Source of the DNA: Schmidtea polychroa
Lineage: Eukaryota
DNA length: 64,000 nt
Direction of reading: 5' to 3'
Assembly (NCBI GenBank): GCA_044892525.1
Contig: CM097887.1
Span: 72,540,001-72,604,000, forward strand
This document shows, in pieces, positions 7,812 to 54,402 of this stretch. The notes beneath the pieces are model-generated. The model had not been told where the DNA came from, did no database searches, and saw nothing but the letters and a program-made list of their open reading frames with translations. A program made the position numbers and the translations under genes. The first letter of the stretch is position 1; every line of letters starts with the position of its first letter.

Positions 7812-8369
7812 TCAACGGGCAACCGGTATTGGCCCGAGTATTGGAGCCAAGATAGGGTCCGAGGGTCCACCAGACATAGGCCGATAACCAGAGAGAACGG
7901 GGGCGGGAATTGGTGGCAATTGTGGGCCATGCCCCTTGCAATTAGTTACTGACGATGATTCAGCTGACTGGTGATGCCCGGGGAACACATTAGTCCCCTC
8001 TTGTATCGGGTATTCGCGAACTCGCTTCGCTATCTCTGCTTCGGAGTATACTTTATGCAGCGCCTCTGATTGGGCTTTTATGGTTAGCCGCTGGCATCTA
8101 CTCTCTTCCAGGAGACTGTCACGGCAGTGCTCCAGGCGTAGAATCTTACTCTTCTCCTCTTTCATCTGTGGTGGGGAGAACCACGTTCCCTCATAGAGGT
8201 CAATTCTCTTCTTTAATTCCCCAATGTACAAGTGCAACTGTGCGATGTCTGCATTTTTGTCCGAACATGAGAAGCATGGACGGAGATCTTTTCTGGACTG
8301 GATCGGTGTAGTCATCTGAAGATAAAGAAGGTTTCCATTAAGGCGGGGTTGCGAACAGCTTTCCCTCAT
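7812..8369 (-). CDS. ORF-X copy 1: unknown LTR-encoded protein (CxxC, coiled coil, EGTWFSP motif); likely start at Met 8315
   Basis: PCFSCSDKN...IDLYEGTWFSPPQMKE...LEHCRDSL...QSEALHKVY...NVFPGHH...CKG. Homologous to four other copies in the window. A CTTCAG acceptor lies directly before ATG 8315. Confidence 0.7.
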   Translation of the reverse strand: MRESCSQPRLNGNLLYLQMTTPIQSRKDLRPCFSCSDKNADIAQLHLYIGELKKRIDLYEGTWFSPPQMKEEKSKILRLEHCRDSLLEESRCQRLTIKAQSEALHKVYSEAEIAKRVREYPIQEGTNVFPGHHQSAESSSVTNCKGHGPQLPPIPAPVLSGYRPMSGGPSDPILAPILGPIPVAR

Positions 8370-8524
8370 GATTATTTAGTTCCCTCAACATACAATTTCG
8401 CTGACCCTCGACCGGTCTCCGATCGGAGACGGTCCTTAAAACCATTATTTACTACGACCACTCATATTCACATCAACGTAAACCATGCAAGATTAGAAGA
8501 AAACGGGAGTCATAAATAAAACAC

Positions 8525-8617
8525 TTTATTATATTTGCTATGTACTGTATATCTCCTACATGTTGATGATTTATCTAAGTTATTCTGCTAATTTTCGGGA
8601 AAACCTTCGCTTTTATA
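8525..8617 (-). promoter_or_regulatory. Putative LTR TATA box (8617-8610) and polyadenylation signal (8530-8525)
   Basis: TATAAAAG followed about 80 nt downstream by AATAAA on the element strand. Motif match only. Confidence 0.45.
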
Positions 8618-11054
8618 ATTATAACATTTAAATTTTCCGTTGTTTGTTATCGGTGACAATTTTATTCAATATCGTGACCTATTGAGAGTCGTTGGGTCTG
8701 AATGTCACAGGGAGTGAAATGACTATCGCTTGGAGTACTCGACCTCCTCGTACCGGAAATGAGAATTTAAAAAAACTCGTCGAGAATTTTAATTATTACT
8801 TCGAATTATCTAAAAGTTCGTTTAAATTAGCGGCGTTAGTGTAGTCATGGAAACCCCAACTATTCATTCCTACTCTGCATGTATGTGAGTATGCATATAT
8901 TTCACTGTGTTAAGATTATAGTATGCCGGTATTACTCTTACCCACGGCTAGACAATTCTCGTTGAAATTAATTTCACTAAATGATTTCGATGTCGCTGAC
9001 TATGTTCGCACACACCGTCTCACACTGTTATATCATTACGTCATTTTCCTACTCGAGTTACTACGGTGGATCAGCTTGCTTGTGTGCATCATTGGACATA
9101 CTGATGATTATGCATGGCGTGGATACCTGATTTGATACTAGAAATATTCAGTTAGATCTATCAACACAGTGTTTCGAATTTGGAGTTTTATTATCGCCTT
9201 GCCAAGTTGGAATTATGAGTGAGTGATTATAAGGTCTACTCGATGTTTATCTCTGCTAATCTCTATCAAGCGCCGTTACTGGACCTTCATGGCCTCGTTA
9301 TCCGGGTATTGGAGGTGCTCAGGCGAATGCTTATCGGTCGTCTACGACTAATTTCCAGCAGGCCCGGACTAAAAGATAATTTCCCTAGTTTGCTGACCTC
9401 AGATTTTCTCAAGGCTGTCGTGAATATTTACATTCACTATCGGATGATTTTCATGTGTCGTATAGGTTCTACTTTTAGCGACGATAAGGCCTGTCAAGAA
9501 TGATTGTAGAGTCTGATTAAAGCCGAGAGGATGGATGTACTCGCTAATGCTCTAGTGGTTCAAATCTCTGAAGAAAACTAGAGACAGTTTATACAGACCT
9601 GTCTGGGATTTTCCTTTGCAGCCGAAAACTATGATCCCTTCATAATCAATTCACCGAAATTCGAAAGTTTAAAACAATAATCATGTCGAATTGGAGCATA
9701 ATGAAGTACGGCAGTACGTGGAAATGAAGATTCTGTCTCATGTCTTTTCCGGAAAGTTTTAAACGGAGTTATTATTTGTATCAATTGTCGCAATTCTGTC
9801 TCTTCTCACCCCTCCTGACTCACACAAGCACAGCATGCATCGCTGCCGCCGCATTTGGACCGTCAGGAAGGACGATTCCATCCCCTCAGATTTCTATCTT
9901 CTTCATCGAAAACAATCATCGCAAATAAACAATAAATTCGTCCGACAATTCAATATTAACGAAATATTATTATTATATAAAATAGTTAGTTACCCGGCGA
10001 CCACGCCGCCTGAAACTCGAACATGATACAAAGTCGGAATGATCCTCGTACACTTCATTTTCCATTCTCAGTGGGATTTAAATTCTCGATTCGATGTCTT
10101 TATTTTCATTACTCGTCTACGAGTATCATCTAGCCCATTCATTCGCGTTTCTGCATCATGTCCGAATTCCAGACGACATCGTCGCCGGTCGCATGGAGAG
10201 AGAGAACATCTTTATAATCAAATAGAAAAATTTATTAAAATTAAATTATTTTGTTCATTCCTTTTTATATAAAAACAAAATTAAAATATGCATCATACTT
10301 ACAATACGTTTCCTTCGAGAGTATTGGAAAAATATCGGTTGAAGTTTTCTGTTCCCAGGTGAATAATATTAATGCTCTGTGGAAATCTCGATAACTGTAT
10401 GAATAGTGTTTCTTGAGTATAGTCCTTGCGAATTGATTTAATGAAGTTTGCTGTAGAGTTTGGTTAAAAAGTGGTCGTTAACAAATTAAAATTTTACCTG
10501 TAGAGTTTGGTTAAAAAGTGGTACTCTACAGATATTTTCCGTTTCTTTTATATTATTTTCTGTCCAATCAGGACGCGACTTGCGTGTAATATTATTATTT
10601 ATTACTATTTTTATGTTTTTTAATGCAATAAGGTATATTTTAATGACTTTTCTCTATTTTTATTATCATTTTATTTATTTTTCTATTTTTTATTATTTCC
10701 CTCCTGTTTTTCCTATGACTTTATTGTTTTTTGGTTATAGTCTAATTTTTTGTTTTAATTAGTTTATGTATTTATTTGATAATGATTTATTTTTATTTTA
10801 TTTCCTAATTTCTGGTTTATTTTTCTTACATTTATTATTTTATTTCCTTATGCTATTATGTGTGGTGCGTTATTTTCTTTTCTCATCTTGTTTTTTCATC
10901 TTTTATTGTTTTCATTGGTTATTGGTCATTCCTTTTATTTCTGTTATGTTTATCTAATTTTATTTGTTCTTCTATTTTTCGCGCTTTTCGTGCAATTTAT
11001 TTTATCCCCCTTATTTATTCTTAACCGGTTTTGCAATACTCTCGAAGCTTGGCC

Positions 11055-11059
<5 letters not shown>

Positions 11060-11087
<28 letters not shown>
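11060..11087. repeat. (TA)n microsatellite at the insertion site of element A; other (TA)n runs at about 14805, 14968, 26815, 48290 and 48454
   Basis: Read directly from the sequence. Confidence 0.95.
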
Positions 11088-11090
<3 letters not shown>

Positions 11091-12674: not shown

Positions 12675-12905
12675 CACGTTGACTGCCACTATATATACCT
12701 CTAAATGTAGATGTAAACCATAACAAAAAAAACCTTAATTTACTTTTATCAAGGTACCACTGTATATAAATAAACAGTTTAAGCCCACTGCAACAAGAAA
12801 AACGTGATTATTCAGTAGTATTATGTATGTACCACCGGCGCTACACGTGGCATATGTATAAAAATGTACTGTGTACTGCGGGCGGGGCATATGGCAGTCA
12901 ACGTG
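12675..12905. mobile_element. Small MITE with 14-bp TIRs, possibly piggyBac-derived
   Basis: CACGTTGACTGCCA (12675) and TGGCAGTCAACGTG (ending 12905). TTAA is present on the right flank only. Confidence 0.45.
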
Positions 12906-14117: not shown

Positions 14118-14404
14118 TTATTTTCGAATGTTTAATTAAATCATTTTTGATTCAGTGTTTTATTGATTTTGAAAACTATTAAGTACATTGAAATATTGGT
14201 TGTATTTATTATGACAAAATTTCAAAAATAAAGTTTTATATTTTATATACCATTTTCTATCAGTTTACAATATTTTTGACCGATATGCCAAAAACAAATT
14301 CCAAATCTAAAAATAAAAATTCATTGGTTTCGGTTTAGTTTTGTGGTTGGTTTTTTAATTACATTGAATATTTTTTGATGAGGTATCATTGTATAAATTT
14401 TCAG

Positions 14405-14963
14405 TAAACCAGGTGAATGTTTAACTGTGGAAGGGCTTTGTCACGATGGGCCAATTATGTCTGTCAGCACGCAAAAATATTCATCGTCTGATCATGACTG
14501 CAAGGATTTGTTTCTCACGTCGTCTGTCGATTATTCAGTCAAATTGTGGTCGAATTCAGAAAACTATTCATCAAATTTGATTTTTACCCTTGATGATCGT
14601 AGTGATTACGTATACGATGTTGATTGGTCACCAATACATCCTGCAGTATTCTGTTGCGTGGACGGATCAGGGAAATTGGAGGTTTGGAATTTCTTGCGCA
14701 GTGTTGAGGTAAATAAAATTTTATTTGTGATATATATATCACAATATTTATCAGAAAAAAAATCTAACTTTTGCCCAGGGTCATAGTTTTATAACATCCT
14801 GGCGATATATATATATATATATATATATCAGCGGAATGTCATAGGGTAGTTTTCAACGCAAAATTTTCACATCAGGGGGGTTAATCCTCCCATTGTATGA
14901 TTTTCTATAGTAAATATCTTTTCAAGAGAGTTTGGGCGCGTGATTGCTTTCTCAATAATTCAA

Positions 14964-15031
<68 letters not shown>

Positions 15032-18000
15032 CGCCGCAGGAAAAAAATTTTTGGCCCCATTTGGACGCACAATTGAATAAGACCAGGGTTTCCCTGCGAC
15101 GGAACACTTCGTAACTCTCGAAATTTTGATGGAACACCTTGTATATTTTGTACGATATGAGACCAGTGGCGTAGGCCTACCCAAGATTTTTTTAAGGGGG
15201 ACGGGTAAGTGTTAATTGAAAGAAGGGATCATAGTTACAGAGGAGTTTTGCGCCGCAGGCAAAACATTTTTTTGGGTCATATTTGGAAAGACGATTTAAT
15301 TAAATAATTAGAGCTCAATATACAATATAACAGTATAAATCGTTATAAAATGATAGTAATGTATCAGGGACAAATGTGTATAGCCGACAAGCGAAACAAT
15401 TTTTTTGACCCCTATATGAATGGGTGATTTACTTAGATAACTAAAGTTGTTTGCTTATACAGTATATTATTAGCGAGGGAGAGGCAGGGGGATTGCATAA
15501 GTAGGTCAAAATGCAGGTAAATAATGTACTTCATGCAATAAGTAAACAAAACAGTGGAGCTTTATTACATAAAACCACAAATCGATCATTTGGAGGTCTC
15601 TGTTGACTGATGCCGACCGTGCCGTTGTTTGACATTGTTTTCTGAAGAAAAATTAAGGAAACTTGGAAAAAAGGCTCCACTGTTTTGTGGGCCCCTATTC
15701 ATTGCTTACTCTTGCTATGTGGTAGCTACGCCACTGATATATAAATCCCATCACTGGTAATAACCATAATGAATATATATATTTTTAAAATTTATTTTAT
15801 TAAACTAGATACAGTTAGCTACATTTTAAAAAAATTGATTAAAAAATGGGAATGTTTAATGTGTGAAAATCATAAAAATATTTTTTGAAAAGTAGTGAGT
15901 CGATTAATATGAGCGGTACTGTAATGATAAAATAATGATATTTATCAATATATGTACTAACATTTTTTATTTATGTTGAACAGTTTGACTAAAGTGATTC
16001 TGGAAAATCATTTTCTTCTATATTTTATACCATAGATTTCAGTTCTCTAATAATAAATGTTTATCTAGGAACCGATAGCCAAAGTAACTATTGATTCCCA
16101 AAGTGCCATTAACAGATGTAAGTGGCACGATTCCGGTTTGTCATTAGCCACTGGAGATGATATCGGCCGAATTCGGTTACACGAAATTAATGNNNNNNNN
16201 NNNNNNNNNNNNNNNNNNNNNNNNNNNNNNNNNNNNNNNNNNNNNNNNNNNNNNNNNNNNNNNNNNNNNNNNNNNNNNNNNNNNNNNNNNNNNNNNNNNN
16301 NNNNNNNNNNNNNNNNNNNNNNNNNNNNNNNNNNNNNNNNNNNNNNNNNNNCAATAAGAGGATTATTTTTTAGTTTCTACCACTAAACTAAATTGGTCAC
16401 GTTTATTACACAGCCTCTTCCTCAAGACGTGAAGCATTGATAACACTTATTGTGAATCTATTTGACAAAATCCTGACTTAATCCGCGCTAAATTTAGAGT
16501 GATCGATCCTTGACGTTTTAGGATTCTGACTGTGTTGTTGAATCCCTTATTTGGCGAAAAATCTCCAAAAAACAATTTGCCGAAAATTAAAAAATAATGA
16601 TAAAAACATGAAACAAACTAACAATTTTCGTTCGTCAACACTGTTTTTGTTATTTAGACTTTAACATTTCGGTTCTAAATTAGTGTTTCTGAAACGGTTT
16701 AAAACGAAACCGAATCCGAAACCGCCGGTCTTTGAGTCACAAAACCGTAACCGAATTCGCACAAGTATTTTTTAGGTTTTTCGGTTATTAATTTTTCCTA
16801 TTAGTTCAACCTATAATACTATATAAAAACTTCGATGGTTGATTTAGTTTAAATTTCTTTCTTGTCATAAGCATAAAAAAGAGATAAATATAACTTTATT
16901 AGATTTAAATTTAAACATTATATAATTTTAGTTTTACAACAAAATCCTTTTTATACAGAATATATAATGCCAGGAAATGATATGCAATCACCATTTTGGC
17001 AATATTTTAACAAGATGTTCAATGATTTGACTAAAACAAAATGCACAATTTTTAAAAATACTTGTACATACTCACGTGGATCCACAGGTGCAATGATAAC
17101 TCACCTAAAAACTATGCATAGGATTATTATTGAAAGAGTGTGACATCGGAATCAGACCAAACTTTATTATACCAAAAAAACCTAAAAATATTTTGGATTT
17201 TGTATAAAAAGATTCTTTAGAAGTAACATTTTCCAAACTAGCTGCGAGAGATGGTTCTTAAATTCGTGGAATAACACGATCAGTTTTATAAGAGATTCAA
17301 TGAATGTCCGCGGATTTAAGCTTCCAAAAAATAAAATGGATGTCATGAAATTAATCCTGACAGATTATGGAATTAAAAAAGGTGAGTTGAAAAACAAATT
17401 GTAAAATGCTAAATCTGCTGGATAAAAAGTTAGTCTTAGGATGGATGAATGGATCAGCACCAAGATGAGGAGATATTTTAATATTAATTTACATGATGCT
17501 AGCGAAAAGTTTACTGATTTGGGATTGTCTCGCATAAACGGTTCTTGCAACTCAGAAAAAATTCAACAAGTTTTTCGAAATCATTTGTTACAATTTGGTA
17601 TTTCATTTGATACAGACATTGTCACTTGTACTATAGATGGTGCTGATGCTAATGTAAAATTTGGTGGAGAAAGTCCTACAGAATTTCAACTATGCCTTGC
17701 TCGTGGCGCTCATCTTGCTGTTATGGATGTGATAAAGGAGATTCTGAAGAACAATTTTGTAGAGCTGATATTGGTAGTGAAGAATCTGAAGACGATCATG
17801 ATTGTTTTATTGAAGATGACGAAAATGATATTGTTTGTTCCCAAACAAGAAACCTTAATTCAAATCTTCATCAGAATCTTGAATCACTAAGAAAAGTAGT
17901 GAAGTTTTTTCGAAATTCTACTGTTAGAAATAATAAGGTCATGTAAACAAAATGCATAATCACGAACTTGAATTACTTTTGGATTGTAATACTCGATGGA

Positions 18001-21497: not shown

Positions 21498-23568
21498 GAG
21501 GTACAAAAGGGTGAATATTATATGTGTCATGCCAATATCTGCATTTTGTGATGTTCCGCAGCTATGGTTACACATAGCTATTTGTTTTTTCTTCTGGTAT
21601 AATTGATGAAATAATTTTTTTTTCGTTTTATTATAGCTATTGTTTATTATTATTGTTTATTTGTAATAGTTTTACAGTGTCAATCAAATATATTAATTAC
21701 ATGAATTTATAATATAATTACGTCACAGCATAACAACTATGTTATCTATGTAACTCCGTGAAAGAACCTGAATATTTTTTTATTATAATAACCAATTATG
21801 TATCATTTTACAAATTCGCCTATAATAAATACTTTTTTAAATACATACATATAGAAATGTTGGCCTTAGGGGTTGCTAATTTATTTCGTTAACTTTGATT
21901 TTGAAACATCAAATTATCTTACTTTTATCCCTATGTTACAGTTGTCTCTGCTAGTAGTCATTTGGAAGGGTATAATATGGTTGAGATTAAATGGGCATAT
22001 TAAACTCAGTTAACAAAACTTGAACATACTCCTTAGCAGTTAATTTCTGTTATGTCACTTTCCAATAATGTTTTCTAACTACAATCTTCTGGTTCATTTT
22101 TAATTTTTAAATCATGATCAAAAGTCATTATTTAAAGCAAAATCCGTCAGATATCACTCATTTCAATCATTTTCATGTGTAACTACGGTATGATCTACCA
22201 TGTCTGAGGTTGTAGTAGTTGTATAGTGCAAACTCATTTTGTCGTTGTGACTAGCTTCTTGTGACAACAACCCTAAATAACAACCGTAAAATGTCGAAAT
22301 TTCAAAGTTTTCTTGTGGTAGGTTGCATGTGGAGAGAATCTTTCACTTTCTGGGTGACTATCTATTTGAAACTTTCACTATGTTCACCTTCCACTAGCAA
22401 CCGCGCACAATTATTTTAATCGACAAATAAACGCCCGCCGCAAGCGATTTTGGTACTGATATTTAGCGGGTAGCTGTCGGTAAAAGGTGAGTTCTACCAA
22501 AAGAACTGGTATGGACCCGACCAGCCTCTGGGTTCATGGGCTACAGTAAGAGGTATTACGCCCTATTTCCTCTCGTCATTTTCTCGTTTTAATTTTTCCC
22601 TTAATTTTTGTCACCTATCTTAGACTTCTAGGTAAAATCTTCTATAGAAAAAGAATTTAAAGTATTTTGGAAATTCGAGATTATAGGATAAATATCCTTT
22701 GTGAAATCATCAGTAATTACGTTAATATATTTTATATATGCATAAATTTTGTAATCAACTCAAGTTCGTTTTTTGTTTCCTAATTGTTCTAACTTTAAAT
22801 TTCTTAACTTCCAGATGAAAGAACTGCCTCAACGTTTTATTCGATTTGATGTTTATTTTTTATTGTTGTTTTGATCGATCTAATGGACTAAGATATTCTT
22901 ACACAGAAAACTGTTTTATCTGACTCCAAAGATAGACTTTCTAGCGTGTAGGTAATATAAATAAACTATATGAATTAAATGAAGATCTAAGCCATGAGTA
23001 TTGATATATATTGATATTACGGTCCCTATCCGATAACTTCTTTTCCTCAACTTCGTGAATCACTAAATTAAGTAAATCACTCATAAGTAACTCAAAGATA
23101 AAACCAATAATTGTAGGCGTCTAGCAACCAGTGTCCCTCCTCATAGTTATCACAAGTCGCCTGATTTATCGATTAGGTTTTTCCTTTGTTAACTGTTAAT
23201 GGCCTTTTAATTGGTTTTAATTTAGTTTAATCCGGTGTCGTTTAATTTTGAATGGGTTTTGTAATCTAAGTTCCTGTGCTGTTAACGTTCTACTACATTC
23301 ATTCTTCGACTCATCCTTCTTAGTCAACACTAATGATTTAATATTAATTAATAATTCCGCAATTAAGTTTTGTAAATGAAATTGTAAATGAAACAGATTA
23401 ATGGTTCAAGCTAATTTTGTATCTAATACCTTCTACTTCTTGTATCAAGTAACATGTTTATAAGGAATTATAACAAAACTCGTAAATACCACTATTTTAA
23501 ACTTAACTATAATAAATGAAACCAAATGAGCAAACTATATTCCACCTGACCTTCTAAGCCATTCATAC

Positions 23569-31929: not shown

Positions 31930-32318
31930 TACAAAGTATATGTGCAAGCCTATCACGGAAGAAGACAATGTCTTCCTCGAACTTCATCAAAAAACAGAAG
32001 TCAGACAACCAACAAGAAATCCTGCAAAAGCTGTGTGGATACGCTTTTATCGCCATGCACTTTCAATATATGTGTCACGGGGGTCAGTCAAGTGACCCCG
32101 AAATCTATTCCACCTCCAACGAAAGACACACCTCCTGTGTCACTGGTCAAATCGAAACGCCGAAAACCGACTCGATTGGAACGAAACATAAAACGAAAGG
32201 CTTTGCAGCACGAGAGACCCAACTAATTGGTGAAGTGGTTCGACAAGCCCTGAAAACTCCACCAGAGGGCAGTGGCTTCAACCGGGTAGTCGTGGGTTAC
32301 AGGTGGTCGGAGGATTAA
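31930..32318 (+). pseudogene. ORF-X copy 2 (C-terminal half, frameshifted), starting at the LTR B edge
   Basis: KVYVQA / PITEEDNVF..H / SCKSCVDTLLSPCTFNICVTGVSQVTPKSIPPPTKDTPPVSLVKSKRRK aligns with copy 4 (ACKGYVETTLSPTSSEIIITDTSQVSPKSAQQPMADKPPVVTEKPKRK). Confidence 0.7.
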
Positions 32319-32679
32319 GTGCTGTTACCAGCGTAACCCAAAATACAACATTAGAGTTTCCACTTGGTACCCTTTGAGTAATCAACGTTGGTACTGTACC
32401 AAGGGTTGAGTACTCTTAAAAAGTGAGCGCATCAAGGCACTATAATTGTCGAGTACTCCATGGGTTCACGGACTACCGATAGAAGGTGTGTGTCCGATTT
32501 CTCAGGTCCCTTATCAAAATTGTTTTCACAAAATCTCAACTCACTAATTCTCAATCACTCGATATTTGCGAACAATATACCTCCTACAACACTTGTTAAC
32601 TAAATTGTATTTATACCATAACAATAAACAACCAAAAATTCAATGCGTATAGTCCAGATGACTGTTCGTATTGCTGGGA

Positions 32680-33091
32680 TTACGTGGGCGTCGCCCTTTC
32701 TTGTCGTTCATACTCGGCTAATCTAGCCTTCTTTAGCTTTTCCCGGATGTTTCGTCCCAGCCGCTTCCTTTTGGGCTTATCTTTCGCGGCCGGAGGGTAG
32801 ATTGCTGCCAACTCCACTTATTGTGGCTCCGTGAACTGCTTGTTCATTGCATTCGGTTTCTAACGCACGGAGTTGGAGCTTCAAGGCCCGGATCTCCATC
32901 TGATCCTGCGCGGCTTGGGTCTGCAGTTGGAGGACCTGCGCCACCTTATTTTTCATATCCTGGGGACTAAACCAGGTGCTTTCTAGTTCTCGGCACCGTC
33001 CCTTGAGTCTGTCCACTCGGACTCGGTGATCCTCGGCCTGTTTTTGTGCTTCTTCCCTGTCCTTTCGCAGGTTCTCCAATAGTTTGAACAC
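32680..33091 (-). pseudogene. ORF-X copy 3 (divergent, antisense in LTR B)
   Basis: Coiled coil with ELESTWFSPQDMK; after a frameshift, KDKPKRKRLGRNIREKLKKARL. Confidence 0.6.
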
Positions 33092-33262
33092 GCTGGGGCG
33101 ACAGGTACTAGCAACGAACTAAGCTCTTCGTCTGCTTACCTTTCCTTCGGTTGTGCTCGTTATGAGTGGTTCGCTCTGCATACAAGTAATTTATTTAATT
33201 TGCTAATTTCTAAATTTCCAGGGGATGTATATCGGATCAGGATATCGATTTTTTTGTAGTTA

Positions 33263-33625
33263 CCTGTAATAATAATAATAATACTAATAGTAATAACAAT
33301 GAAATAACGATACTAATAATAATAATAATAATGATAATAATAATGATTTTAATATTAATAATAGCAATGATAATAATAATACTAATAATAATAAATTTTA
33401 ATAATGGTAATGATGGTGATAATAATAATAATACTAATAGTAATAGTAGCAAGAATAATAATAAATTTTAATAATGGTACTGATAATGATGATAATAATA
33501 ATAATGCTAATAATGATAATCATAATAACAAGAATAGTAATACTAGTAGTAATGATAATAATAATGTGGACACTACTAATAGTAATAATGAGGGAAATGA
33601 TCAGGATTATGATAATTATAATTTT
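33263..33625. repeat. Degenerate (AAT)n low-complexity tract
   Basis: Read directly from the sequence. Confidence 0.9.
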
Positions 33626-36600
33626 ATGATCCCATGGTTTAGAATTATAAATTTATGTTTCATAATTTATGCTTTGATAATTTTCGATTTATAATTTTAA
33701 ATTTTCAATTTAAGGATTTACAATTTTGTACTTTATAATTATAATTTCAGATTTTGTAATTTATACATTCGTATTTTATAAGTTATAATTGTTTATTTGG
33801 TAATTTGTAAGTTTATATTCTAAAATTTATACTTTTGTATTTTGTAATTCGTATTTTCATACTTTATAATTTGAAATTTTTTAGTCGACGGAATACACTT
33901 TTTATAACCTCCTTTCTATGATCAACATTGTTTTCCGAAGTACTTACAGATTTCCTGGTCCTATTTGTGAATTAAACTTCGGAGTGCTAACGCGTCTATC
34001 GCCTATCTGTAACTAATCCCAAGTTGATTTACGAAAAATTGTTCACTACTGTCTCTGATCAGACTTTCTCCATTAACAATTTATATTTTTAGGATCAACA
34101 TGATTGTACCTAGCTATCGTAATCATTTATAACTTATGGTTTTATAGTTAACAAAAGAATATTACAACTAAGAGTTTACACATTTACAAGTATTTTAAAG
34201 TGGAATCAGCATATCTAGATCAAGTTATACCTGTACGTATGCCGAATGTCTCTTATTTCTATGACTTTATCAAAGATCCTTACTACAAAATCTGGTTCGG
34301 CATATGTCCAAGTATAATTGAAATTACCATAAAGGATCAACTAGCTACATCACTGTGAGTGCAGAATTGTGTAATTTTAGGTACGAGCTCTGCTCAAATT
34401 AGAACCTTAGTGTAGAGTTATTGTTCAGGATTTTAAGTGTTGAGTTTAATTGTATATTACGCAATGAGTCGGGAAGAATATTGCTTCCATGGCCCCACTG
34501 TGACCACTTCCACAAACCTTAGTGTTGTGTGCTAAGTCAACCATTTACGGCTGACCTTAAATAAATACGAAGAGTCAGACGGAGGGTTTCCTCGACCTAA
34601 CTCCATGGCAGGACCATGAAGTAGTTCGACCTCCGGCTGACCCGAACAAAAAGACCCATATAATAAGAGATTATTATAATATAAATAATGCATGTGTGCA
34701 TGTGCTATGAGGATATTAACAAATTGGATGCAGGACTGAACAACGGCGCAGGAATACCAATACGCCGTTGAACATTCGTACATCAAAAAAAAATTTAATA
34801 AAAAAAAATCAAATATGGAATTACTTTAATCTTAAGTAAATCATAACTACATGATAATAATAAAAAATTCAATCATATATACTCACTATGTGGATTGGAA
34901 AAGTTTTGTTCAAAATTTGGCATAAAATAATGATTAATTCTGACTGAAACGTGTCAGTATATATACCTATTTTGTACACGTGTATGTATTGATGCATTAA
35001 AACAAACTCGAATTCTTTTTATTCCAGAATTTTCTATTTTGCGATTTTGATATTTTTAATGGCAATTTTTGTGCCATAATTTTTGTTTTTATTTTTATAT
35101 TTTTATTTTTTAATTATTTTTCGTTAATTCGACGTTCATGATGGATTTGGAACGGTTCCAGAACATTCCATGTTAATTTTAATTTTATTTTTATTCTAAC
35201 TGATGTTTTATGAATTTCTTTTTAAGATTTATTATTTTTAATACTAATTTATTTATTTTCTCTAACTTTTATTGTTCTAGCTGGCTTTTGTGATGGTCAT
35301 CGCCATTTTAATGGAATGTTCTAGGTTTTTCTGGAATTTTTTTTTTGGTTTTTATCGTCTTTTAAGTTATTCGAGTCTGTTTTACGTTTATCTGTGTTTA
35401 TTTGGTTATTTTCGAGTTCTATTTTGCATAACCTCTTGCTTTTGGTATAATTTATTTAATTTCTGTGTTTAGGTTTTTGTTGTTTTTTCCTTTAATTACT
35501 ATTGTTTATTTGGTGTAGTTTTTAATATTTAACTATACTTTTTGCTTTTCGCATGCTGTGTACTTACACATTTCAGTCACAATTAGAAATTTGGGTCTAG
35601 AAGTCAGTTCTAGCCCAACAGTAGTTTCGCGTCGATCCACCGTCCAGTACTTCCTGGGAAGAAAACGCCAGGGACTTCTTCGATTTGGACAAGATTTTAG
35701 CGCAATAAAATGATTTGAATTCATTTGGGGTTGAAGGTTTTAAATCTATGATACAACTTGGTGGAATGTGATTGATTCTTAATGTCGTGTATCTGTGGAG
35801 AAAGAGGGAGAACGCAAATCAAGCTCTCAATGAGCGAGGTAAGACGTAAGTCCTTCTAACGGCTGTCAGAAGAAGGGTAAGCCGGAATATGGTGAAGGAG
35901 TAGTCCCAAGGAAGGGGCTCACCTACTTCGCCATCATGGCACAGTACAAACATAATGTAAGTCATGGGTGTCATGGTGTGAGAATGATCATGGAGGATCT
36001 GACTAGCGATCGACAAAAAGAGTTTGTTTAGTTTGATTGACCTTCGTCCCCTAGTAGAGAGTGAATGTGTGTTGACCTAGTCGACAACCCAACACATCTC
36101 AGATTCAAACACTGCATATTTTCATCGCCCAAATCTTTTTAATTAATCAGTTAAACAGGCATAACAATTCCATTAAAGTTCTCATCTATTTTGATTTAAG
36201 TTTATCCACAAATTATTATCATGTTTAAAATTTAAATAAATTATGTTTGACCCTATTTTTCTGAGATACAAAATCAATTTTGTTGACGCTACACTTTGAT
36301 TATATTTATAAATCAAAAGCCCTATTTATAAAATCACAGACTAAATTGTTTTCTAAAACTAGTCCGTATTGCTGTGGTACATCCATTAATATTAACATTT
36401 ATTTCAAATAGTTTTTTCCTTTCTTGGGGGTCTTCTAGAGTATACTTATCCCATACTTTTGATGTTTTAGTTTTTAAAAACATAAATAATGGTTAAAATT
36501 TTTATTGATACTTTTCTAAAAATAAAACTGAATTTATTATTTATCTCACCAAGGATTTGAAAATCAACAAAATTTAAAACATTTAGTATAATTTGAATGA

Positions 36601-39800: not shown

Positions 39801-42800
39801 TTAGAAACGTCCTAGCCACTATTAAAGCCAACCTCGACAATTTAAATCATGAAATCAAGCCGTATTCATTTCAAGTCGATAGCAAAGGCAAAACCACTAA
39901 GTCATAATAGTGTAAAAATATGAAATTTGGATAATGTTCAATTTTTAAAGCCAACATACCAATCCATCGCTCAATTGGTTTTTGATAGTTATTATTTTAC
40001 TTTAGTTTGGAGAATTTATTGTTCAACAGATTATCAGATGTGTTTTTACAAGTTTTTTGTGTAGTATTTTCAAAAAAATGTAATTGATAAAAAGCACAAA
40101 TTTTATTTGGTTTGTTTAAATAGAGTAAAACATTTCATTTTTATTGAATATTAAATTTGAGTATAATTAATTGTAATATTGGTAGCCGACGAGTTGATCG
40201 AAAAATATTATTTTTAAGGAATTAAAAACTTTTAAATTTTTTCTTTATATGCAGAAACTTAAAATGTGTTTATAATAGCATTTGTTGCAAAAAATTAGTG
40301 ATAATAATTTAAATATTTAAAAAATTAATTTGAAAATGGATTTACAATTCTTTATTAGTGAAAAAGGAAAACAGAAATTGTTTTTAAATGGATGTTTATT
40401 CTATAAGGACAAAAGTTTTGAAGCCAAAATATATTGGCGATGTGAAAACTATAAAACTAAATGCAGTGCTTGTGTAATAACGGAAAACGGCATTTTAGTT
40501 AATTTTAAAAATATTCACAATCATGTGATAGATGTAGCAAGCGTTCAAGCTAAAAATGTCATCAGCTGCATTCGCCAGGAAGACCTCATTACTCGTGATG
40601 CACCACAATATATTGTAGCTTCATCTTCAGCATTAGTAAGCCGAAGTGTTGCCGCCAAATTGCCCAGCGTGCCGAATCTTGCAAGAACTATATGGACTGT
40701 TAGAGCGAAGAAAAATAAAGGCCCACCTATTCCCAGATCAAGGCGTGATATTGTATTCAGTGATGAATATACAAAAACAAACAAAAATGAAAAATTTCTT
40801 TTATATGATTCTGGAGCTGAGGATAACGACCGCATATTAATTTTTTCAACACAAACAAATTTGGATATTTTACGGCGTTCTCTTCATTGGCACGGTGATG
40901 GTACTTTTAAAACCGTTCCTCCATTATTTGAACAATTATATACTATTCATGGATTGGAAGATAATATATCAATTCCATTAGTATTTGGTCTCCTCCCAAA
41001 TAAACGAGAGGAAACATATGTACGTTTTTTGAAAGCAATAAAAGAATTAACTGGTCATTGCAATCCTCAAACTATAATGACGGATTTTGAAGTCGCAATG
41101 ATCAACGCATTTCAACGAGAATTTCCACTATCCAGGCATTGTGGTTGTTTTTTTCATTTTAATCAATGTATTTGGCGTAAAATACAATCATCTGGACTAA
41201 AACAGCAGTATGAAAATGATCCATAATACGCATTAAAATTTCGAATGCTTGCTGCAATGGCATTTGTTCCAACAAATGTTATTATAAACACATTTGAAGT
41301 TTTATGTGAAAGTAATATATTTACTGACGATATGCTACCTGTGGTTGATTATTTTGAGGACACATGGATTGGACGACCTATTCGTCTCATAGGACGCCGC
41401 CCACCGAAATTTAATCACCAATTATGGAATTGGTATGAAGTGGCATTGCAGAATTTGCACAAGACGAACAACAATCTCGAAGGATGGCACAATGGATTTC
41501 AGACATTGCTGAACGCTCTTCATCCAGGAATTTGGAAATTCATCGAACTGTTAAAGAAAGAAGAAAGCTTAAATGAACTAAAAATAGAACAATATCTAAG
41601 TGGACAGCAACCTCCACAAAAGAAGAAAAAATATCGTGATCTTGAAGCAAGATTGTTGCGGGTGTTCAATCTTTGGGATGAAAATATTGATATAAATGAT
41701 CATTTACGATCGATTGCTCACAATGTTTCATATTAAATTTTAAAATTATAATATAAATATTATGTACATATATAAATAAAATATTTAAAATTTCTGTATA
41801 TAAATAAAATATTTAAAAGTTTTTAATTTTTTAAAAAGAGACATGCTTTTTTGAGATAAAATCCTCAACTCGTAAGTTCCTTAAAAATATTATTTTTCGA
41901 TAAACTCGTCATTCGATCAATTGATCATTCGATAAACTCGTTTTCGATAAACTTACCGAGAATCGTAATATTTCCTTATTCAAAATAAAATTATGTGTGA
42001 AATTATTTATGCTTCAATGGAAATTTATATAAATACAGTTTATAATAAAAGCAAATTTGAAATATTAAATTCTTGGCTGGTTAAAGAATTTAAAGATCTT
42101 AAAGCAGCTTGAAAAAGTTATGGGATTTCTAAAGAAGAACAAATCATGTTTTAATGGGTACCACCCCCCCCCAAATAGGACCGCGTAGATAGAAATATTC
42201 GTATGTAGAAAAGAAAGATATTGTATGTATGTTGACTTCAAAATGACGTCATCCGTGACTTTTTAAGCGTCAACTGGTAAATGCCAAAAGAATGCCTACC
42301 TATCACAGAATGCGTTAGCAAGAGTGGATGTATCAGGCTGGTTAGGAAGAGAATATGTGGCGGTGCGGTGTAAAATAGAATTTAGGGTTTTCCAGAGCGA
42401 GTGTGGATAAGTGTATAGTTGTTGATGGGGTGTGAAACTTCCGGAAACAGTGTGTTTTTGTTTACTCAGTGTTTACGCGGTTCTATTGGCGGGGGCCTTT
42501 TGCCCAGAGTCCTTATATTAGAGGCCTTTTTTTCGGGTACTTTTATGTCGGGGCCGTTTTGCCAAATGCCCTTTTGTCGGGGCCTTTTTGACGGGTCACC
42601 TTTTTAATGATAGAGTTGAAAGATAATAAATTACTCAGTTCGTTTGGAATTAAATCAGAAAGTTTAATGGAGCTTATCTTTGATTTTAAAATTGAATGGT
42701 ACCAAAATCAATTGAGTGAATATCCTAACATCACCACAATATTGAAAAATGTCAACTCGAAATCTCCATAAGGAAATTGTTCATACTATTTCGCACTTTA

Positions 42801-48286: not shown

Positions 48287-48350
<64 letters not shown>

Positions 48351-48452
48351 ATTTTAAAATCCAATTATTCTTCAAAATAGCTGCTGTTGTATTCTCGTCT
48401 TGTCATGATACTGCATTTCATGATGTATATCTAATAAATTGACTCATAATTG

Positions 48453-48453
<1 letters not shown>

Positions 48454-48533
<80 letters not shown>

Positions 48534-51500
48534 GCATCTTTCGATGAATTGTTAAAGTTCCATAAAAAACAATAAAAGTTGTCTCAAATAAATTCGAATT
48601 ATTGTGTTTTAAAATAGTTTCTTTAGTTCGTATTGTCAATGTTTTTCTTTTTTGGCATTCTTTACAACTGCGGATTACAATCTTAATTTGTTCACGTTTA
48701 TTTTCAAAATCAAATGTTTGTACTTTCTTCACCCCTGCATGGCATAACGTTTGATGAGTGTGTTCTACGAATTGTCTTATCTTTTTCTTTGGTATCCATA
48801 TTTTCCTTTTGTTCGTTTTTATCACATTGTTTTTAATTTCAAATTTGATTTCTTCTCCTTTCAGTATTTTTTATCTTATATCAACAATCTCTATAGGGTT
48901 TTTTTGCCACATGGAACCATCATCTCCTAGCATCAACGCTAGGATTCTTGTCTTTAACCTGCCTTTCTTTGGTTCTTCGTGTATTGTTTGGTACTGTATG
49001 CATGTGTCACATTTGTTCCGTGATAAAACATCAGCATTAACATGTAATTCGCCTTTTTTGTACTTTAAATCCATATCTAAACCACTAAGATGGTTAATCC
49101 ACGTCTGAAACTGTGGTGTAATAGGTTTCTTGGTTTTAAGCATAAATGTTATTGCCTTGTGATTCGTTCGAAGTTTAAATCGCTTCCCATATAAATAATT
49201 TTTACAATATAAAGTAAAATAATAAATTCCAAGTAATTCTTTTCTAGTGATGCAATACCCTAATTCGTGTGTACTCATTGCACGCGATTCATACGTAATC
49301 ACTTTTTCATTTCCATTAGAATTGTTGGGTTATAGAGTTGTTGATAAATTTAAATGTTACTCTGACTCCAAGCGTGTCTTTGACTGATCCACAAGTAACA
49401 CTTGACAACAGAAATCTTTATTGATTATCACAAATGAAATTTCACTTTACACTGACAATCAATTCAACACTCTGCTTGGTGACTATACAATGCTTATTAC
49501 AACACTCAGTGAGGAATAGCATTTGCGGATAACACCGGATTAAAAGATCACAAATTACTGATTGGTTTATCAACTGGGACTTTGAGCTGATTGTTTTCTT
49601 TGACCTTCTTCACAAATTTAATTCAAATACTCAAGTAACTTCTTTTCTCAAATCTTCTCCAATAATTATTCTTCACAATTATTTTCTTCACAATTCTTTT
49701 TCACAAATCGTTTCTCCAATAACGTTTCGTCCAACGTTGTCTAATTTTTCCAATAATTTTCTCCCAAGTTTGTCTCTCAAGTTGTCTGAATTTGAGTCCA
49801 CCAGTTTCCCTTTATATAGTTATTTTATTTGTGGCACTGGCGACTGATTCTGTTTTCCATTTTCCTTTTCCTCTACGTCATCCTTATCTCTGACAGATAT
49901 CAAGATATTTTTTCATTTTCATTTTTTGTTAAGCCGCCTTCTCCCGATAATTTCGCTATCTTTGACAAGCTGTCAAAAATTTTTTTTTACTAGAATTTGA
50001 AATTCCACCTTCATTTGCACTTCCTTATTAATAATGACCTTTGTTTTAATTTCTTGTTTGTTTTCTTTTCTTTGATTTATCTTTCTCATTTTTAATTTCG
50101 TTTTACTTCCGTTTTCTTTTCTGAGTTCCCATAGATCATCCCGTTTGTCATGGCGATCTTCCCCCCAGGTAATTTATTTATTTATTCTGTTATTTTCATT
50201 TAGTTATCCTCAACAGAATTTAACTGTGATAACACCACTCCTATTCCATCAAAGTTGCATCTAATATAAATTCTTTTTCTAGATTCGGGAAAGCCAGTAT
50301 TGGGGCTCTCATTAATTGTTCTTTCATACCTTGAAATGCTATTTCGCATTCATCTGTCCATATTAATTTTTTTTAGTTACTCTCATATAGTTTCTCCAAG
50401 TTCTTAGAAAACTTTGTATAATTTCCAATGAATATTTGATAATAATTCGTAAGTCCCAAAAATCTCCTCAACCTCTTTTAACATTTTGGTATTTCGAACT
50501 GTTTTATTGCGTCAATTTTACAATCCTTCGTTCTTATACCATCTTTATTTATGATATGGCCTAAAAACTTAGTTTCACATTTCGAAAAGTGACATTTTTC
50601 TCGTCTCAACTTTAATTCAGTTATTTTAATTCTATCTAGAACATTTTGTACTCTTTTTATATGTTCCTCTTTAGTTTTTTGAAAATATTAGGATATCGTC
50701 CAGGTACACTACAGCTTCTTTCCAATTTAGTGATCCAAGTACACTGTTCGTTAATTTCTGGAAAGTAGCAGGAGCCGCTGGTATCCCAAATGGCTTATGA
50801 TTGAAGCAATATTGATCATTTTTTGTAGAGAAAGCCGTTTTCTTTTTTGAATCTTCAGTTAACTCCACTTTATGCACTTGGTAATATGCACTGCCTAAAT
50901 TCAGTGTTGTGAAAAATCTCGATCCATTAAGAGTGTCCATTATTTCTTCTGTATTTGGTATTGGAGAATAGGTCCTCTGTTACTAAATTTAATGCTCGAA
51001 AATCTGAGCAAATCTCATCTTTGTCTTTCTTTTATATGCATGCCAGTGGCAAATTCCAAGGTGATTCGCATTTATTTATAATACCATTCTTTTCCATCTC
51101 TTTAATATTTTCTTCTATTTTCGATAAGAGGTGTACAGGTTGATATCTTGGATAAATAACAATGGGATGTCCTGTCGTATTTATCTCATCTTCTACTACC
51201 CCATACAGTTACAGTTATATAATTATCTTTCCCATTACAGTTATGCCACTGCCGTTTGTACATTTCACTTCAATATCACATTTCTCCAAAGTTTCCAAAT
51301 CTTTTATAAATTTCGTATTCTAAAACACTAATCTTTTTCCATGTATCAAGCATACACATTGCCTTTTCTTTATTTATTTCAATTTCTACACTGGGTCTTC
51401 CTCATATATGGTTATAATTAGTTATAAATTCTTTGGGATTTTCCACTTTTATTTTCCACTTTATTATTACGTTACTAGAGTGATATGGTTTAAAAATTAA

Positions 51501-52300
51501 TTTATTTTCATTTAAATTATATAAATCATAAATATTATAATTATTAAGTTCATTCAAACTATTATCAAAATACATATCAACATTGTTCGAAATATCACTT
51601 ACATTCAATTTATGGCTCCGATCATTTCCCCAGATGTCGGAGCACATTCGTTTGGGTCATCTCCTTCCACTGATCGTTCGCACTCGTCTCCGAAAGCAGC
51701 TATGTACCGAGAACTCTGGGACTTCCTTTGTGGATTAACTTCATAACACTGGTGTTTGAAATGTCCATTCTTGTGACAATAATTGCATTTGACTTTTGGG
51801 CATTCTGATCTTAGATGACTTTCTTCTCTACAAGCCCAACAACTTCGTATGTGATTATCTTGGTTTGGATAAACATTTCTTCTAATCGATCCGTTAAAAT
51901 GTCTCGCGGGCCACTAATGTCCTTCTCGAAATTGTCCTTGATTTCTGGTCTTTTCCCACTGATTTCGATTTCCTGATCTTTGAGTATTTGTTTCCGGTCG
52001 TTCTACATTCCGACTTTGTTCGATTCTTTCGTTCATTTGACGATGATATGGTTTTCTTTGGTTCCATGTTTATCCTTCATTGAACAATGCTACTTTAGCA
52101 TAATTTTTCTTTACATGTTGTATCGAACCAAAGTTTTCGATTTCAATATCTTTTTAATATCATCATATTTGACCAATCGATTTTTTATTTCTTCGGATGT
52201 TTTTTGTCCTTGTAATTTTAAATCGAATTTAAGTCAGAAATATGTGTATTTTACAAGCATTAAATACCCCGTTATTACTCGACAGCACAAATTAAATTAA
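48454..52300 (-). mobile_element. Decayed Ty3/gypsy element (gag-PR-RT-RH-IN), split by a solo LTR
   Basis: Knuckles CWAC..ESH..SEC and CNYC..NGH...QC (~51700-51850); PR MLDTW (~51340); RT LNLGSAYYQ..KTAF..PFG..YLDD (50671-50940); RH DA..GIGVVLSQ|VITYESR..TRKELL (50300-48871); IN HHCC HQTLCHAG..CKEC (48454-48825). Confidence 0.9.
49323..50215 (-). mobile_element. Solo LTR (893 bp) inserted in the RNase H of the gypsy element
   Basis: TGTTG...CAACA termini with a perfect TSD GAAT (49319-49322 and 50216-50219). Removing it restores the reading frame SQLNSNGNEKV. Same family as 23569-24472. Confidence 0.93.
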
Positions 52301-52334
52301 TTTTAATAAAATAAAAATAATAAATCAATCCTAA

Positions 52335-53702
52335 TTGTCATCATCAGGGCCGACCACTTCAAACTCTTCTTTTTCCAGTCATTTTCTCTTCCATTTACAC
52401 CTCTTTCTCCACGAAACTTACTGCGTACCAGCTTTGACCGATCGATATTTGTCATCATTCTCTTTTTCTTTTAGACCATGTCATCGAATTCAACTAGAAA
52501 ATCAGTAATCACGCCCTGCTTTTCTTGTACCAACAAGAATATGACGATCTTAGACGATGCAGGACGAGATTGGATTTTTGAAGTGAAAGATAAACTATCT
52601 GGAGGGGACATGGTTTTTCCTGCCTAGATGAAAGAAATGCATCGAAAACTGACAAGAAGCGAGCATTGCCGGGATAGTCTGATCAAATAGACTCATCAAG
52701 GAGCAATAAGAAGCGCTCCACAAGGTCTATGTTCAGCCTGTATTCACCAGGAAGATAGTAGTATCCCAATCGCAGAAGCCGACAATGTCTATCCTATTAA
52801 CCATCATCGCCAGAGTTATAAGGACATAAGTCGGAAACGGCTTGTAAAGGGTATGTGGAGACCACTCTCTCTCCCACATCCTCCGAGATCATCATCACGG
52901 ATACCAGTCAGGTGTCACCGAAATCCGCTCAACAGCCAATGGCAGACAAACCACCCGTCGTCACGGAGAAGCCAAAAAGGAAGCAGTTGACGCGCGCCGA
53001 GTGTACCAAACGATGGAAGATGCGATAAGCCGAGGAAGAGTTTCATCTGGCGATCAACAGTGCTATGGCGGCCGCTGATGTAATCAACGCCATGAGCAAC
53101 AATCCGTCCGATAAGTTTCGTATAATACCGCCCACGGGTACACCGTGGGAAGAAGATCTCAATGATTGGTTCGATCTGGACACTCTTTTAAAGGATACCG
53201 AAGCCAGCGGGTTTTGAGGAAATGATCCCAGTAGCGACCTGGTCAGCATAAACTGAATTTTGATTTTGTTCTTTCAGTGATTCTACTCTGTCTGTTTATC
53301 AAATGTAAATATTACTGAGTTAAAATCTTCAAATTTTCTTTTATTCACGGGGTGGGTGTTCTGTAGAAACGTTTTGTTTTCCTACAAGGTTTCGAGAAGC
53401 TGATTAGTGAATAGTTGCCGTCAACCATGATAATACCTGTTGCGACGTAAGTCCTTTTTTCGGTAGTCGGGATTGTGAAGTAGAAAAATCAAGAAGTCGT
53501 CCTAAGGTAGGGGCTCACCTGATCCACGAGTTTCACCGAGGTGTTACAGTATCAACATGATATTAATCATGGGTGCTTAGTCGTTGAGAACAATCATTCG
53601 AAGTCGAACTAGTATGCGACATTTGAAAATTGTTGTGATGGTAAGAGACATTCATCCCCTAGGTGTTCGCTAGTAATGAGTCGACCTAGTGGCGCTCCAA
53701 CA
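52335..53702 (+). mobile_element. 3' portion of a third giant-type LTR ('LTR C')
   Basis: Same order as LTR A (acceptor-ORF-X, donor box, CCAACA end at 53702). The 5' boundary is uncertain. Confidence 0.6.
52478..53217 (+). pseudogene. ORF-X copy 4 (longest, ~245 codons, with stops and frameshifts; missed by the ORF track)
   Basis: MSSNSTRKSVITPCFSCTNKN...KINYLEGTWF..MKE..EHCRDSL..EALHKVY..DNVYP.NHH..CKG..KPKRKQLTR..PWEEDLNDWFDLDTLL..*. A TTTTAG acceptor lies 3 nt before the ATG. Confidence 0.8.
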
Positions 53703-53998
53703 GCTGTAATCATAGGATTCCTGATAATAATATGACAATCCTAATAATGAGGATAATGACCCAGAAAAACAGTCATCAATAATAGGCTTAACCGACCCAA
53801 AAATCACAAATACAACTCTGACAATAAATATTATGAAAACTATTTCCCCTGCCGTCGTCATCAAGTCCTGTTATTTCCAGTCAAAGTTTCGACCTAACGC
53901 ATTCTCTGTTCACTTTAGCCCTTTGAGACAATCTTAATAATTTTTCACGAAATGTGTTTTGTCTTGATTAAATTCTGTCATTTTTTTTGTACCAAGCA

Positions 53999-54402
53999 AT
54001 GAATAACCGACCACAATCCCTGATATCGTGCTTCACGTATTCTGACCAGAACGAGTCCATACGCACGTTGAACAAAAAAATCCGACTCCTGGAAGCGAAA
54101 ATCGACCGCATGGAGGGGACATTTTTTACTCCACTCCAGATGAAAGTTATCAGAAGATTAATCGCCTAGAGCGCTACCGTGACAGCTTGATCACAGAGAG
54201 CAGGCCATAGAGGACCTTGATACAGAAGCAATCTCAGGCTCTGTATCAGGCCTACACAGCACGGGAGCTCGAGACTCGCATAACTGGATTCAGGGTTGCC
54301 AACAAAGCCAACGTCGTCCCAAATCACCACCTTATACCCCCAGTATCTTGTGCCGGTTGTTATTCGTTGGCGACTTCTTCGGTTCCAACTCCGGTTAACT
54401 AA
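53999..54402 (+). pseudogene. ORF-X copy 5 (frameshifted)
   Basis: MNNRPQSLISCFTYSDQN..KIDRMEGTFFTPLQMK / LERYRDSL..QSQALYQAY..NVVPNHH..SCAGC. A pyrimidine-rich acceptor precedes the ATG. Confidence 0.75.

Follow-up and report, generated by a model that had tools for sequence, protein, structure and literature searches.

Five stretches in the window (the 64,000 nucleotides of Schmidtea polychroa DNA analysed) are remnants of a single gene, ORF-X. This protein-coding gene is under strong purifying selection. Several families of Burro-type giant gypsy elements carry it in their LTRs, and its likely route of expression is splicing from the LTR's own predicted promoter.

The five copies are all homologous and all broken (Table 1). 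In tblastx, copy 1 matched copy 5 (E 1e-19), copy 4 (2e-9) and copy 3 (3e-4), and copy 4 matched copy 2 (3e-16), whereas self-blastn gave no match among the five at E<1e-5 over at least 60 nt. The protein-level likeness is thus clearer than the DNA likeness, as an earlier sequence-only reading had claimed. The search for relatives which that reading suggested found 59 naturally intact copies (247–255 aa), and intact relatives matched every window copy (best E 4e-110, 2e-7, 1e-62, 2e-28 and 8e-18 for copies 1 to 5; best E in 20 shuffled windows, 0.049). It had also listed ordered motifs common to the copies. Homology was borne out, but no single copy has the full set, and one listed motif, the linker CxG/CxxC, is not conserved and is missing from group E.

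Each copy is damaged differently. An internal deletion near 7830 shifts the frame of copy 1 and removes its basic patch (dN 0.003, dS 0.085 against L002). In copy 2 the N-terminal half is missing, and the LTR that carries copy 3 has inserted into the rest, so its reading past 32289 is foreign. Copy 3 represents subfamily B, which is shorter and has neither PCFSC nor the acidic tail; copy 3 itself has a frameshift near 32810, and its acceptor and upstream ORF-Y are deleted. Copy 4 carries several stops and frameshifts, and no RNA element lies downstream of copy 5.

Table 1. Features of the window bearing on ORF-X, with positions counted from its first letter.
Feature	Position	Strand	Remarks
gag and CCHC polyprotein part, broken	780..3932	-	
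RING accessory ORF	6271..6750	-	acceptor before ATG; Pfam zf-C3HC4_3, E 1e-7
Primer binding site (PBS)	7212..7229	-	7 nt after LTR; presumably tRNA-Pro-like
5' LTR of decayed Burro-type element, family A, 3.8 kb	7236..11059	-	TGTTGGG...CCCAACA termini
Three-hairpin RNA element, near LTR 3' end	7337..7497	-	model R1, 122 bits
ORF-X copy 1	7772..8315	-	acceptor immediately 5' of ATG; broken
Predicted major splice donor, end of short non-coding first exon	10492..10503	-	alignment and pattern
Inverted CCAAT box and TATA box, predicted LTR promoter	10545..10571	-	sequence conservation
ORF-X copy 2, central part	31948..32289	+	old LTR remnant
Family B solo LTR inside copy 2	32290..35620	-	4-bp target-site duplication GTAG
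RNA element, family B LTR	32344..32500	-	model R1, 93 bits
ORF-X copy 3	32680..33088	-	family B form: coiled coil and basic helix
Family B TATA box and predicted donor	34880..34967	-	exon ending in A
Copy 2 remainder to LTR end	35621..36094	+	acidic tail 35625-35705; RNA element 35838-35994
ORF-X copy 4	52478..53217	+	full length; acceptor 3 nt before ATG
Copy 4 RNA element and LTR end	53439..53702	+	RNA element 53439-53600
ORF-X copy 5	53999..54402	+	N-terminal fragment, frameshifted

The proposed location in giant LTRs was confirmed by LTR pairs elsewhere in the genome, which place ORF-X inside LTRs of 3.9–4.9 kb. Such pairs measured 4174 bp (99.93% between the two LTRs) and 4081 bp (98.65%), with further ORF-X-bearing pairs of 3874, 3878 and 4915 bp; spacings within pairs were 21.8, 26 and 30 kb. 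The LTR of copy 1 matches the paired LTRs L025/L028 at 90–98%. No 3' LTR of its own element was found in the 33 kb beside the window, and env, pol and MATH pieces extend leftwards beyond the window. The position of the PBS shows that ORF-X is in the sense orientation relative to gag-pol.

The host elements span 26–35 kb and encode gag-CCHC, an in-frame fusion glycoprotein and PR-RT-RH-IN, together with ankyrin, MATH/TRAF, BIR and RING cargo; tandem repeats are also present. A single open stretch of 3100 aa contains gag, CCHC, Monjiviricetes_fusion (E 5e-72), protease and RT. Among the ORFs scanned, BIR was limited to family B and Pfam found no BCL2-like domain. By their size, multi-kb LTRs, env-in-frame order and cargo, these elements are Burro-type. 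Burro and GYPSM1 are giant gypsy-like LTR elements of planarians, and section 7 of PMC6431247 describes the same polyprotein domains and internal accessory ORFs in Burro. That section describes no LTR-internal gene, promoter and splice layout or RNA structure, and its figure may show the ORF. Other accounts of Burro (Grohme 2018, Jurka 2007, Lee 2026) may also already show it. New here are the promoter, donor and acceptor layout, the split start of family B and the RNA element. The sequence-only reading had named neither Burro as the host element nor this layout, ORF-Y or the RNA element.

ORF-X was claimed to be an unrecognised family, and searches against known proteins agreed with this. Pfam gave no match for ORF-X beyond two weak coiled-coil matches, each from a single member, among 26, so no profile tied it to a known host or TE domain family. 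PDB sequences gave none, nor did Foldseek against PDB and viral structures at E<=0.001; the best Atlas results (0.85; recognition 1484; delta antigen 0.78) were all at chance level. A word-indexed search with a single ORF-X sequence found nothing among proteins, while one with the ORF-X alignment found one anonymous relative (P0001) among 1.84 billion. Viral and metagenome contigs contained no match, the protein searches revealed no host homologue, and longer proteins, as weak evidence, yielded no relative. The idea that ORF-X is a domain of the internal ORFs was rejected after 447 segments had been compared.

The past purifying selection proposed for the family was upheld, with median core dN/dS values of 0.03–0.07, far from the value of about 1 expected of a neutral frame. 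The medians were 0.031 for the group A core (38 usable of 45 pairs) and 0.068 for groups C/D (7 usable of 36 pairs), and family B gave 0.04–0.065 (5 of 6 pairs); group E gave no usable pair. Differences in the group A core fell mostly at third codon positions (383/119/1632), with dN 0.03 and dS near saturation. Open frame, start context and motifs were retained across groups that are only 33–44% identical. By region, dN/dS was 0.048 in the basic helix, 0.095 in the tail and 0.26 in the linker. The strongest constraint thus falls on the coiled coil and basic helix, which are also the part common to every family; family B, without tail and CxxC, is equally conserved.

Structure modelling predicted a parallel, in-register coiled-coil homodimer with a CxxC cap, a basic helix and an acidic tail. 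The homodimer model scored 0.56 (best of three controls, 0.02), with pLDDT 75–76 and contacts agreeing by at least 83% between runs. Among solved homodimers, 21 of 30 attain the mark used for this score, whereas none of 23 monomers does; the corresponding figures are 17 of 29 for eukaryotes, 7 of 16 for animals and 1 of 7 for proteins without a solved relative, with 0 of 30 monomers. In the modelled dimer the paired CxxC motifs would likely bind zinc. The basic helix has 5–7 Arg and 2–5 Lys in 22 residues and was helical in both models. The tail is a short conserved motif ending a disordered region: an acidic Phi-D/E-D/E-Phi-Phi pattern occurs in all 22 tails, partly built in by the filter used, and LxxLL in eight.

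Conserved signals suggest that ORF-X is likely expressed by splicing from a promoter in its own LTR. A CCAAT box, TATA box and donor, the boxes kept in families A, A', C, D and E, lie about 2.2 kb upstream of ORF-X. CCAAT and TATA occurred in 10 of 14 upstream stretches with the donor at a fixed distance; in the other four no promoter motif was found by pattern. The donor AG/GTAA was found by pattern at TATA +54 to +58 in nine of the ten promoters. An acceptor-like site lies 0–9 nt 5' of the ORF-X ATG in 19 of 22 copies, compared with 12 of 307 other ATGs, and three copies have none by pattern. A short first exon would be spliced over ~2.2–3.3 kb to this acceptor, so any intact LTR, even a solo one, could be a complete gene. 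ORF-X was first assumed to lie in U3, an assumption dropped once the conserved promoter and donor were found upstream of it.

MMTV sag and HIV nef are also LTR-internal protein genes expressed by splicing, but those genes fall wholly or partly within U3, on the upstream side of the promoter. ORF-X differs in lying downstream of the predicted promoter (R/U5) and in a gypsy-type element.

Family B ORF-X has no ATG. Its donor is TA/GT (8 of 8) and its acceptor TAG/TG (23 of 29), compared with AG/GT donors in all other families; the start codon would therefore be split across the predicted junction. Trans-splicing of a spliced leader would give family B no in-frame start if that leader ends in AUG, and cis-splicing is therefore preferred. 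The start codon of Drosophila gypsy env is likewise made by splicing (a literature search brought no confirmation), although protein and position differ. Family B LTRs have a second gene, ORF-Y, with an acidic N-terminus and an AT-hook-like end.

Genomic searches with two junction patterns gave no processed, intron-less copies. Contigs of four presumed-RNA runs cover ORF-X; the matches listed include no junction, and the predicted donor is outside the compared stretch. AATAAA follows the TATA box by 285–440 nt in most non-B LTRs and is missing in B; it or weak variants also occur 100–165 nt past the ORF-X stop. A candidate poly(A) signal that precedes the ATG by 215 nt was rejected, as it is not conserved in A'.

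Downstream of ORF-X, every family has a covarying three-hairpin RNA element, 110–265 nt upstream of the PBS. In the alignment 84.3% of cells were paired, compared with 69.5% after shuffling (0 of 500 shuffles reached the observed value) and 32–43% in slid controls. An invariant U-G pair (22 of 22) indicates the sense strand. Rfam, including twister, gave no match for the one LTR scanned.

What might such a protein do? By analogy only, ORF-X may well be a nuclear transactivator of its own LTR, Tas-like, and this is the reading that we tentatively favour. Translated from the spliced mRNA, the protein would form its homodimer; by the same analogy, its basic helix would mediate entry into the nucleus and contact with nucleic acid, and a coactivator recruited by its acidic, amphipathic tail might close a positive feedback loop at the promoter. 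In tailless family B, the neighbouring ORF-Y may do part of the job. Predicted multimer core, basic patch and C-terminal acidic tail follow the order in foamy Tas/Bel1, which PMC9241813 presents as a multimeric nuclear regulator with a C-terminal activation domain. In foamy LTRs, as described in PMC3694450, the poly(A) signal likewise comes after the major splice donor. However, ORF-X has no sequence or fold likeness to any transactivator, Tas included; its core is a long coiled coil, no DNA target motif was identified, and the whole gene sits within the LTR and past the predicted promoter, whereas Tas is driven by an internal promoter that follows env and precedes the 3' LTR. The sequence-only reading had named both transactivators and Rev/Rex as likenesses in organisation, and the choice between them stays an inference: a 9aaTAD pattern occurred in 0 of 22 tails (8.9 in shuffled ones), a strict NES in 1 of 22 (shuffled mean 10.8), and family B has no tail. 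The Arg-rich helix and the conserved RNA structure beside the gene also fit an RNA-binding role.

A somewhat unlikely alternative is that ORF-X is a post-transcriptional regulator, Rev/Rex-like or Tat-like on an RNA target, whose arginine-rich helices would bind the RNA element of the LTR and govern how intron-retaining genomic RNA is exported, spliced or packaged. The RNA element in every family, with its sense-strand U-G pair, speaks for it, as does the fact that all families have the coiled coil and the basic helix in common. In the sequence contexts compared, an AG lies just before the ATG of nearly all accessory ORFs; many spliced mRNAs are therefore likely made from the element, which would need export of its unspliced RNA. 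Like Rev, Rex, Rem and Rec, ORF-X combines an arginine-rich helix, predicted oligomerization, a likely spliced mRNA and a structured LTR RNA (PMC3856414). Unlike them, it has no homology to these proteins, is twice the size and has no convincing NES, whereas Rev-like proteins carry CRM1-type NESs according to the same source; even a relaxed pattern (21 of 22 tails) occurred in 17.5 shuffled ones. Priming, dimerization and packaging signals would be equally expected so close to the PBS, and simple retroviruses export RNA through a CTE with no viral protein (PMC3856414).

We regard it as unlikely that ORF-X is instead a host-directed adaptor, in which the target of the dimer's short acidic tail motif would be a host factor, perhaps one acting in silencing, apoptosis or the ubiquitin system, and not nucleic acid of the element itself. 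The RING, TRAF/MATH, BIR and ankyrin cargo of the same elements would suit this, as would the short motif ending a disordered region, the reported protection of stem cells by Burro1 B-IAP (PMC13465017) and the targeting of Burro by PIWI (PMC8532177). Against it stand the lack of a host homologue in the protein searches, a constraint that is greatest outside the tail, and a LIR-like pattern in 11 of 22 tails compared with 7.7 shuffled ones. That the frame encodes no functional protein and is kept by LTR DNA or RNA constraints or by recent copying, as the five broken window copies of a gene known here from sequence alone might suggest, is highly improbable and already largely refuted by the codon-position and dN/dS data and by motifs kept between distant groups.

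Complex vertebrate retroviruses are marked by trans-acting regulators. A conserved candidate regulator in the transcribed part of a gypsy-type LTR would mean that an invertebrate lineage had invented such control independently. It is possible, if doubtful, that Burro elements are independently evolved invertebrate complex retroviruses from gypsy stock. Each LTR would then be a regulatory operon complete in itself: a short U3 promoter, 3.5 kb of transcribed sequence containing one or two spliced regulator genes from a new protein family, and a new structured RNA element. If so, thousands of solo LTRs could be dispersed, feedback-regulated genes tuning Burro, an abundant element that PIWI keeps under control and that reportedly helps planarians regenerate; they could also tune its reported anti-apoptotic cargo in stem cells. 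For a family with no known relative, the split start codon and the RNA structure are precise predictions, and since RNAi is routine in planarians, the predicted junction, ORF-X itself and the RNA element can each be put to a direct test.

ORF-X is a real protein family, strongly selected and not recognised before, that resides in the LTRs of an element of known type, the giant gypsy element Burro. The five stretches picked out by the sequence-only reading are all present in the window and homologous, and their similarity is indeed clearer in protein than in DNA, as shown by protein comparison, which linked the copies, whereas blastn linked none of them. All five were matched by natural intact relatives (E 4e-110 to 2e-7; best E 0.049 over 20 locally shuffled windows), and none of the five is itself intact.

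Features of the window and of the fetched loci (L-numbers); bare coordinates are window positions
Feature	Position (strand)	Remarks
ORF-X copy 1	7812-8369 (-)	in LTR 7236-11059; internal deletion
ORF-X copy 2	31930-32318 (+)	central portion of old LTR gene; interrupted by family B solo LTR
Family B solo LTR	32290-35620	splits copy 2, itself bears copy 3; GTAG duplicated at the target site
ORF-X copy 3	32680-33091 (-)	
ORF-X copy 4	52478-53217 (+)	stops and frameshifts
ORF-X copy 5	53999-54402 (+)	N-terminal fragment
ORF-Y	L116:5911-6267 (+); L034:2020-2385 (-)	second LTR gene, family B; ~118 aa
gag frame	2880-3932; also L031, L032	open 107-185 codons upstream of first Met
Tandem array	4867-5692	117-bp unit, 7.1 copies, 96% match; separates the RING ORF from gag
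Weak RNA-model match	22409-22567 (-)	E 0.024; perhaps remnant of a much older LTR
WD40 host gene, exon-like parts	14397-14786, 16069-16386	resembles dynein intermediate chain (by eye)
Other TE remnants	40321-41736, 59242-60891, 48454-51913, 57007-57375	FLYWCH/MULE-like and hAT-like transposases, small gypsy gag/pol fragments (by eye)

Filtering the fetched loci for CxxC, a Met, at least 225 aa and an acidic tail left 59 natural full-length ORFs, reduced to 22 representatives of <93% identity, on which motif counts are partly set by construction. The LTR gene is conserved and under selection, and its product runs from CxxC through the coiled coil, linker and basic helix to the acidic tail. Identity between groups A, C/D and E was 33–44%, and the family B form (140–155 aa) has the coiled coil, a TWFSP kink and the basic helix only. 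The purifying selection suspected earlier was confirmed by pairwise dN/dS (pairs non-independent, saturated pairs removed; group E, with no usable pair, left out). The core gave 0.031 in group A (38 of 45 pairs) and 0.068 in C/D (7 of 36), the whole ORF 0.092 (40 of 45) and 0.106 (8 of 36), the linker ~0.26, and family B ORF-X 0.04–0.065 (5 of 6 pairs). The ratio is thus far below about 1 in group A, C/D and family B. ORF-X had no match among known families, solved structures or folds, and a profile search of 1.84 billion proteins returned a single relative, P0001, an unnamed family B-like sequence on a 638-bp ENA contig.

A search of the 781-Mb genome gave 6526 candidates with copy 1 and 4810 with copy 3 (150 scored in each), and many lay in same-strand pairs spaced 21.8, 26 or 30 kb. 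Five pairs that were checked proved to be LTR pairs of 3.9–4.9 kb with 98.1–99.97% identity, which places the gene in giant LTRs, as proposed. A domain scan of two elements showed gag-CCHC, a fusion glycoprotein in frame, pol domains, ankyrin, MATH and RING in both, with BIR in one of them as well. This is the Burro layout of PMC6431247, whose description of these elements (section 7) mentions no LTR-internal gene. Among the papers covered by a literature search none deals with such a gene, and an earlier annotation is possible. In the window, the copy 1 LTR is followed by a primer binding site, the RING ORF, the tandem array and gag.

The ORF-X LTRs lead to predictions about promoter, splicing and RNA structure that can be tested. 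The gene runs in the same direction as gag-pol, and in most copies of A, C and D it stops 500–570 nt short of the LTR end. Close to their 5' end, the LTRs of families A, A', C, D and E all contain an inverted CCAAT box and a TATA box, with an AG/GTAA donor 54–58 nt downstream of the TATA box. The promoter motif recurred in 10 of 14 further stretches; in nine of these ten the donor was picked up by pattern, and in the other it was recognised by eye. Because these signals are conserved there, U3 is likely to be only 0.4–0.7 kb, with ORF-X in the transcribed part. There is a precedent in foamy viruses (PMC3694450) for a major donor located 5' of the poly(A) signal.

Of the 22 representatives, 19 carry an acceptor-like site 0–9 nt upstream of their ATG; among other ATGs the figure is 12 of 307. 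Family B ORF-X lacks an ATG: TG follows the acceptor in 23 of 29 starts, and TA precedes the donor in 8 of 8, unlike in every other family. Splicing donor TA to acceptor TG would create the start codon, and this matched change at two sites ~3 kb apart is the best evidence for use of the predicted splice. A junction-pattern search found no processed genomic copies of the predicted spliced ORF-X. P0001 reads LV where the family B acceptor reads LV, which suggests the same split start codon in another organism. The gag start, too, may depend on splicing.

In the AlphaFold2 prediction (pTM 0.34–0.35) there are two long helices (~13–41 and 46–98), then a linker without order, a basic helix and, at the end, a short helix. 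Modelled as two copies and scored without zinc, the first 125 residues reached 0.56, compared to 0.02 for the best control, with in-register contacts from CxxC to residue 87, pLDDT 75–76 and contact agreement of at least 83%. Among solved homodimers, 21 of 30 reach the homodimer mark; for animal homodimers the figure is 7 of 16, and for monomers 0 of 23. The modelling supports a parallel dimer for the ORF-X core.

A three-hairpin structure ~265–110 nt before the LTR end is common to all families; in the window this RNA element lies 3' of copies 1–4 and is absent after fragment 5. Across 22 distinct sequences 84.3% of cells were paired, compared to 69.5% on shuffling (0 of 500 as high) and 32–43% on sliding, and two-sided changes occurred in 22 of 34 pairs (reached by 26 of 500 shuffles), although these controls overstate significance because the structure was derived from the same related sequences. 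One U-G pair, invariant in the 22 sequences, points to the sense strand. Hairpin 3 agreed with an alignment-free check, and no Rfam family matched the element. In the 7490 region and its homologues, the first hairpin of most non-B families contains a donor-like GTAAG, which B lacks. At intron-like spacing 3' of it lie GCTCAC and CAG, and all of these are in conserved loops.

What might ORF-X do? We tentatively favour a Tas-like transactivator, because its domain order parallels that of foamy Tas (PMC9241813), its tail is acidic and amphipathic, and the strict NES pattern fits only 1 of 22 tails; the protein would be made from spliced RNA, dimerise and act in the nucleus. Against this, a 9aaTAD pattern fits 0 of 22 tails, the acidic tail is missing from family B, and no DNA target motif was found. 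A Rev/Tat-like role, in which ORF-X would bind RNA at the LTR element, is less likely. Tests of homology placed ORF-X in neither the Tas nor the Rev family. That it serves as an adaptor directed at the host is somewhat less likely again.

ORF-Y has an acidic N-terminus, a predicted coiled coil and a C-terminal TPRKRGRPRK, which we take to be AT-hook-like. It had no Pfam match, and its dN/dS was 0.09–0.21 (6 of 6 pairs). Six of the accessory ORFs scanned in the internal regions of L029-L032, L116-L119 and L125 (214–533 aa) also had no Pfam match. Accessory ORFs in these regions stand in rows, and nearly all have an AG 0–6 nt before the first ATG.
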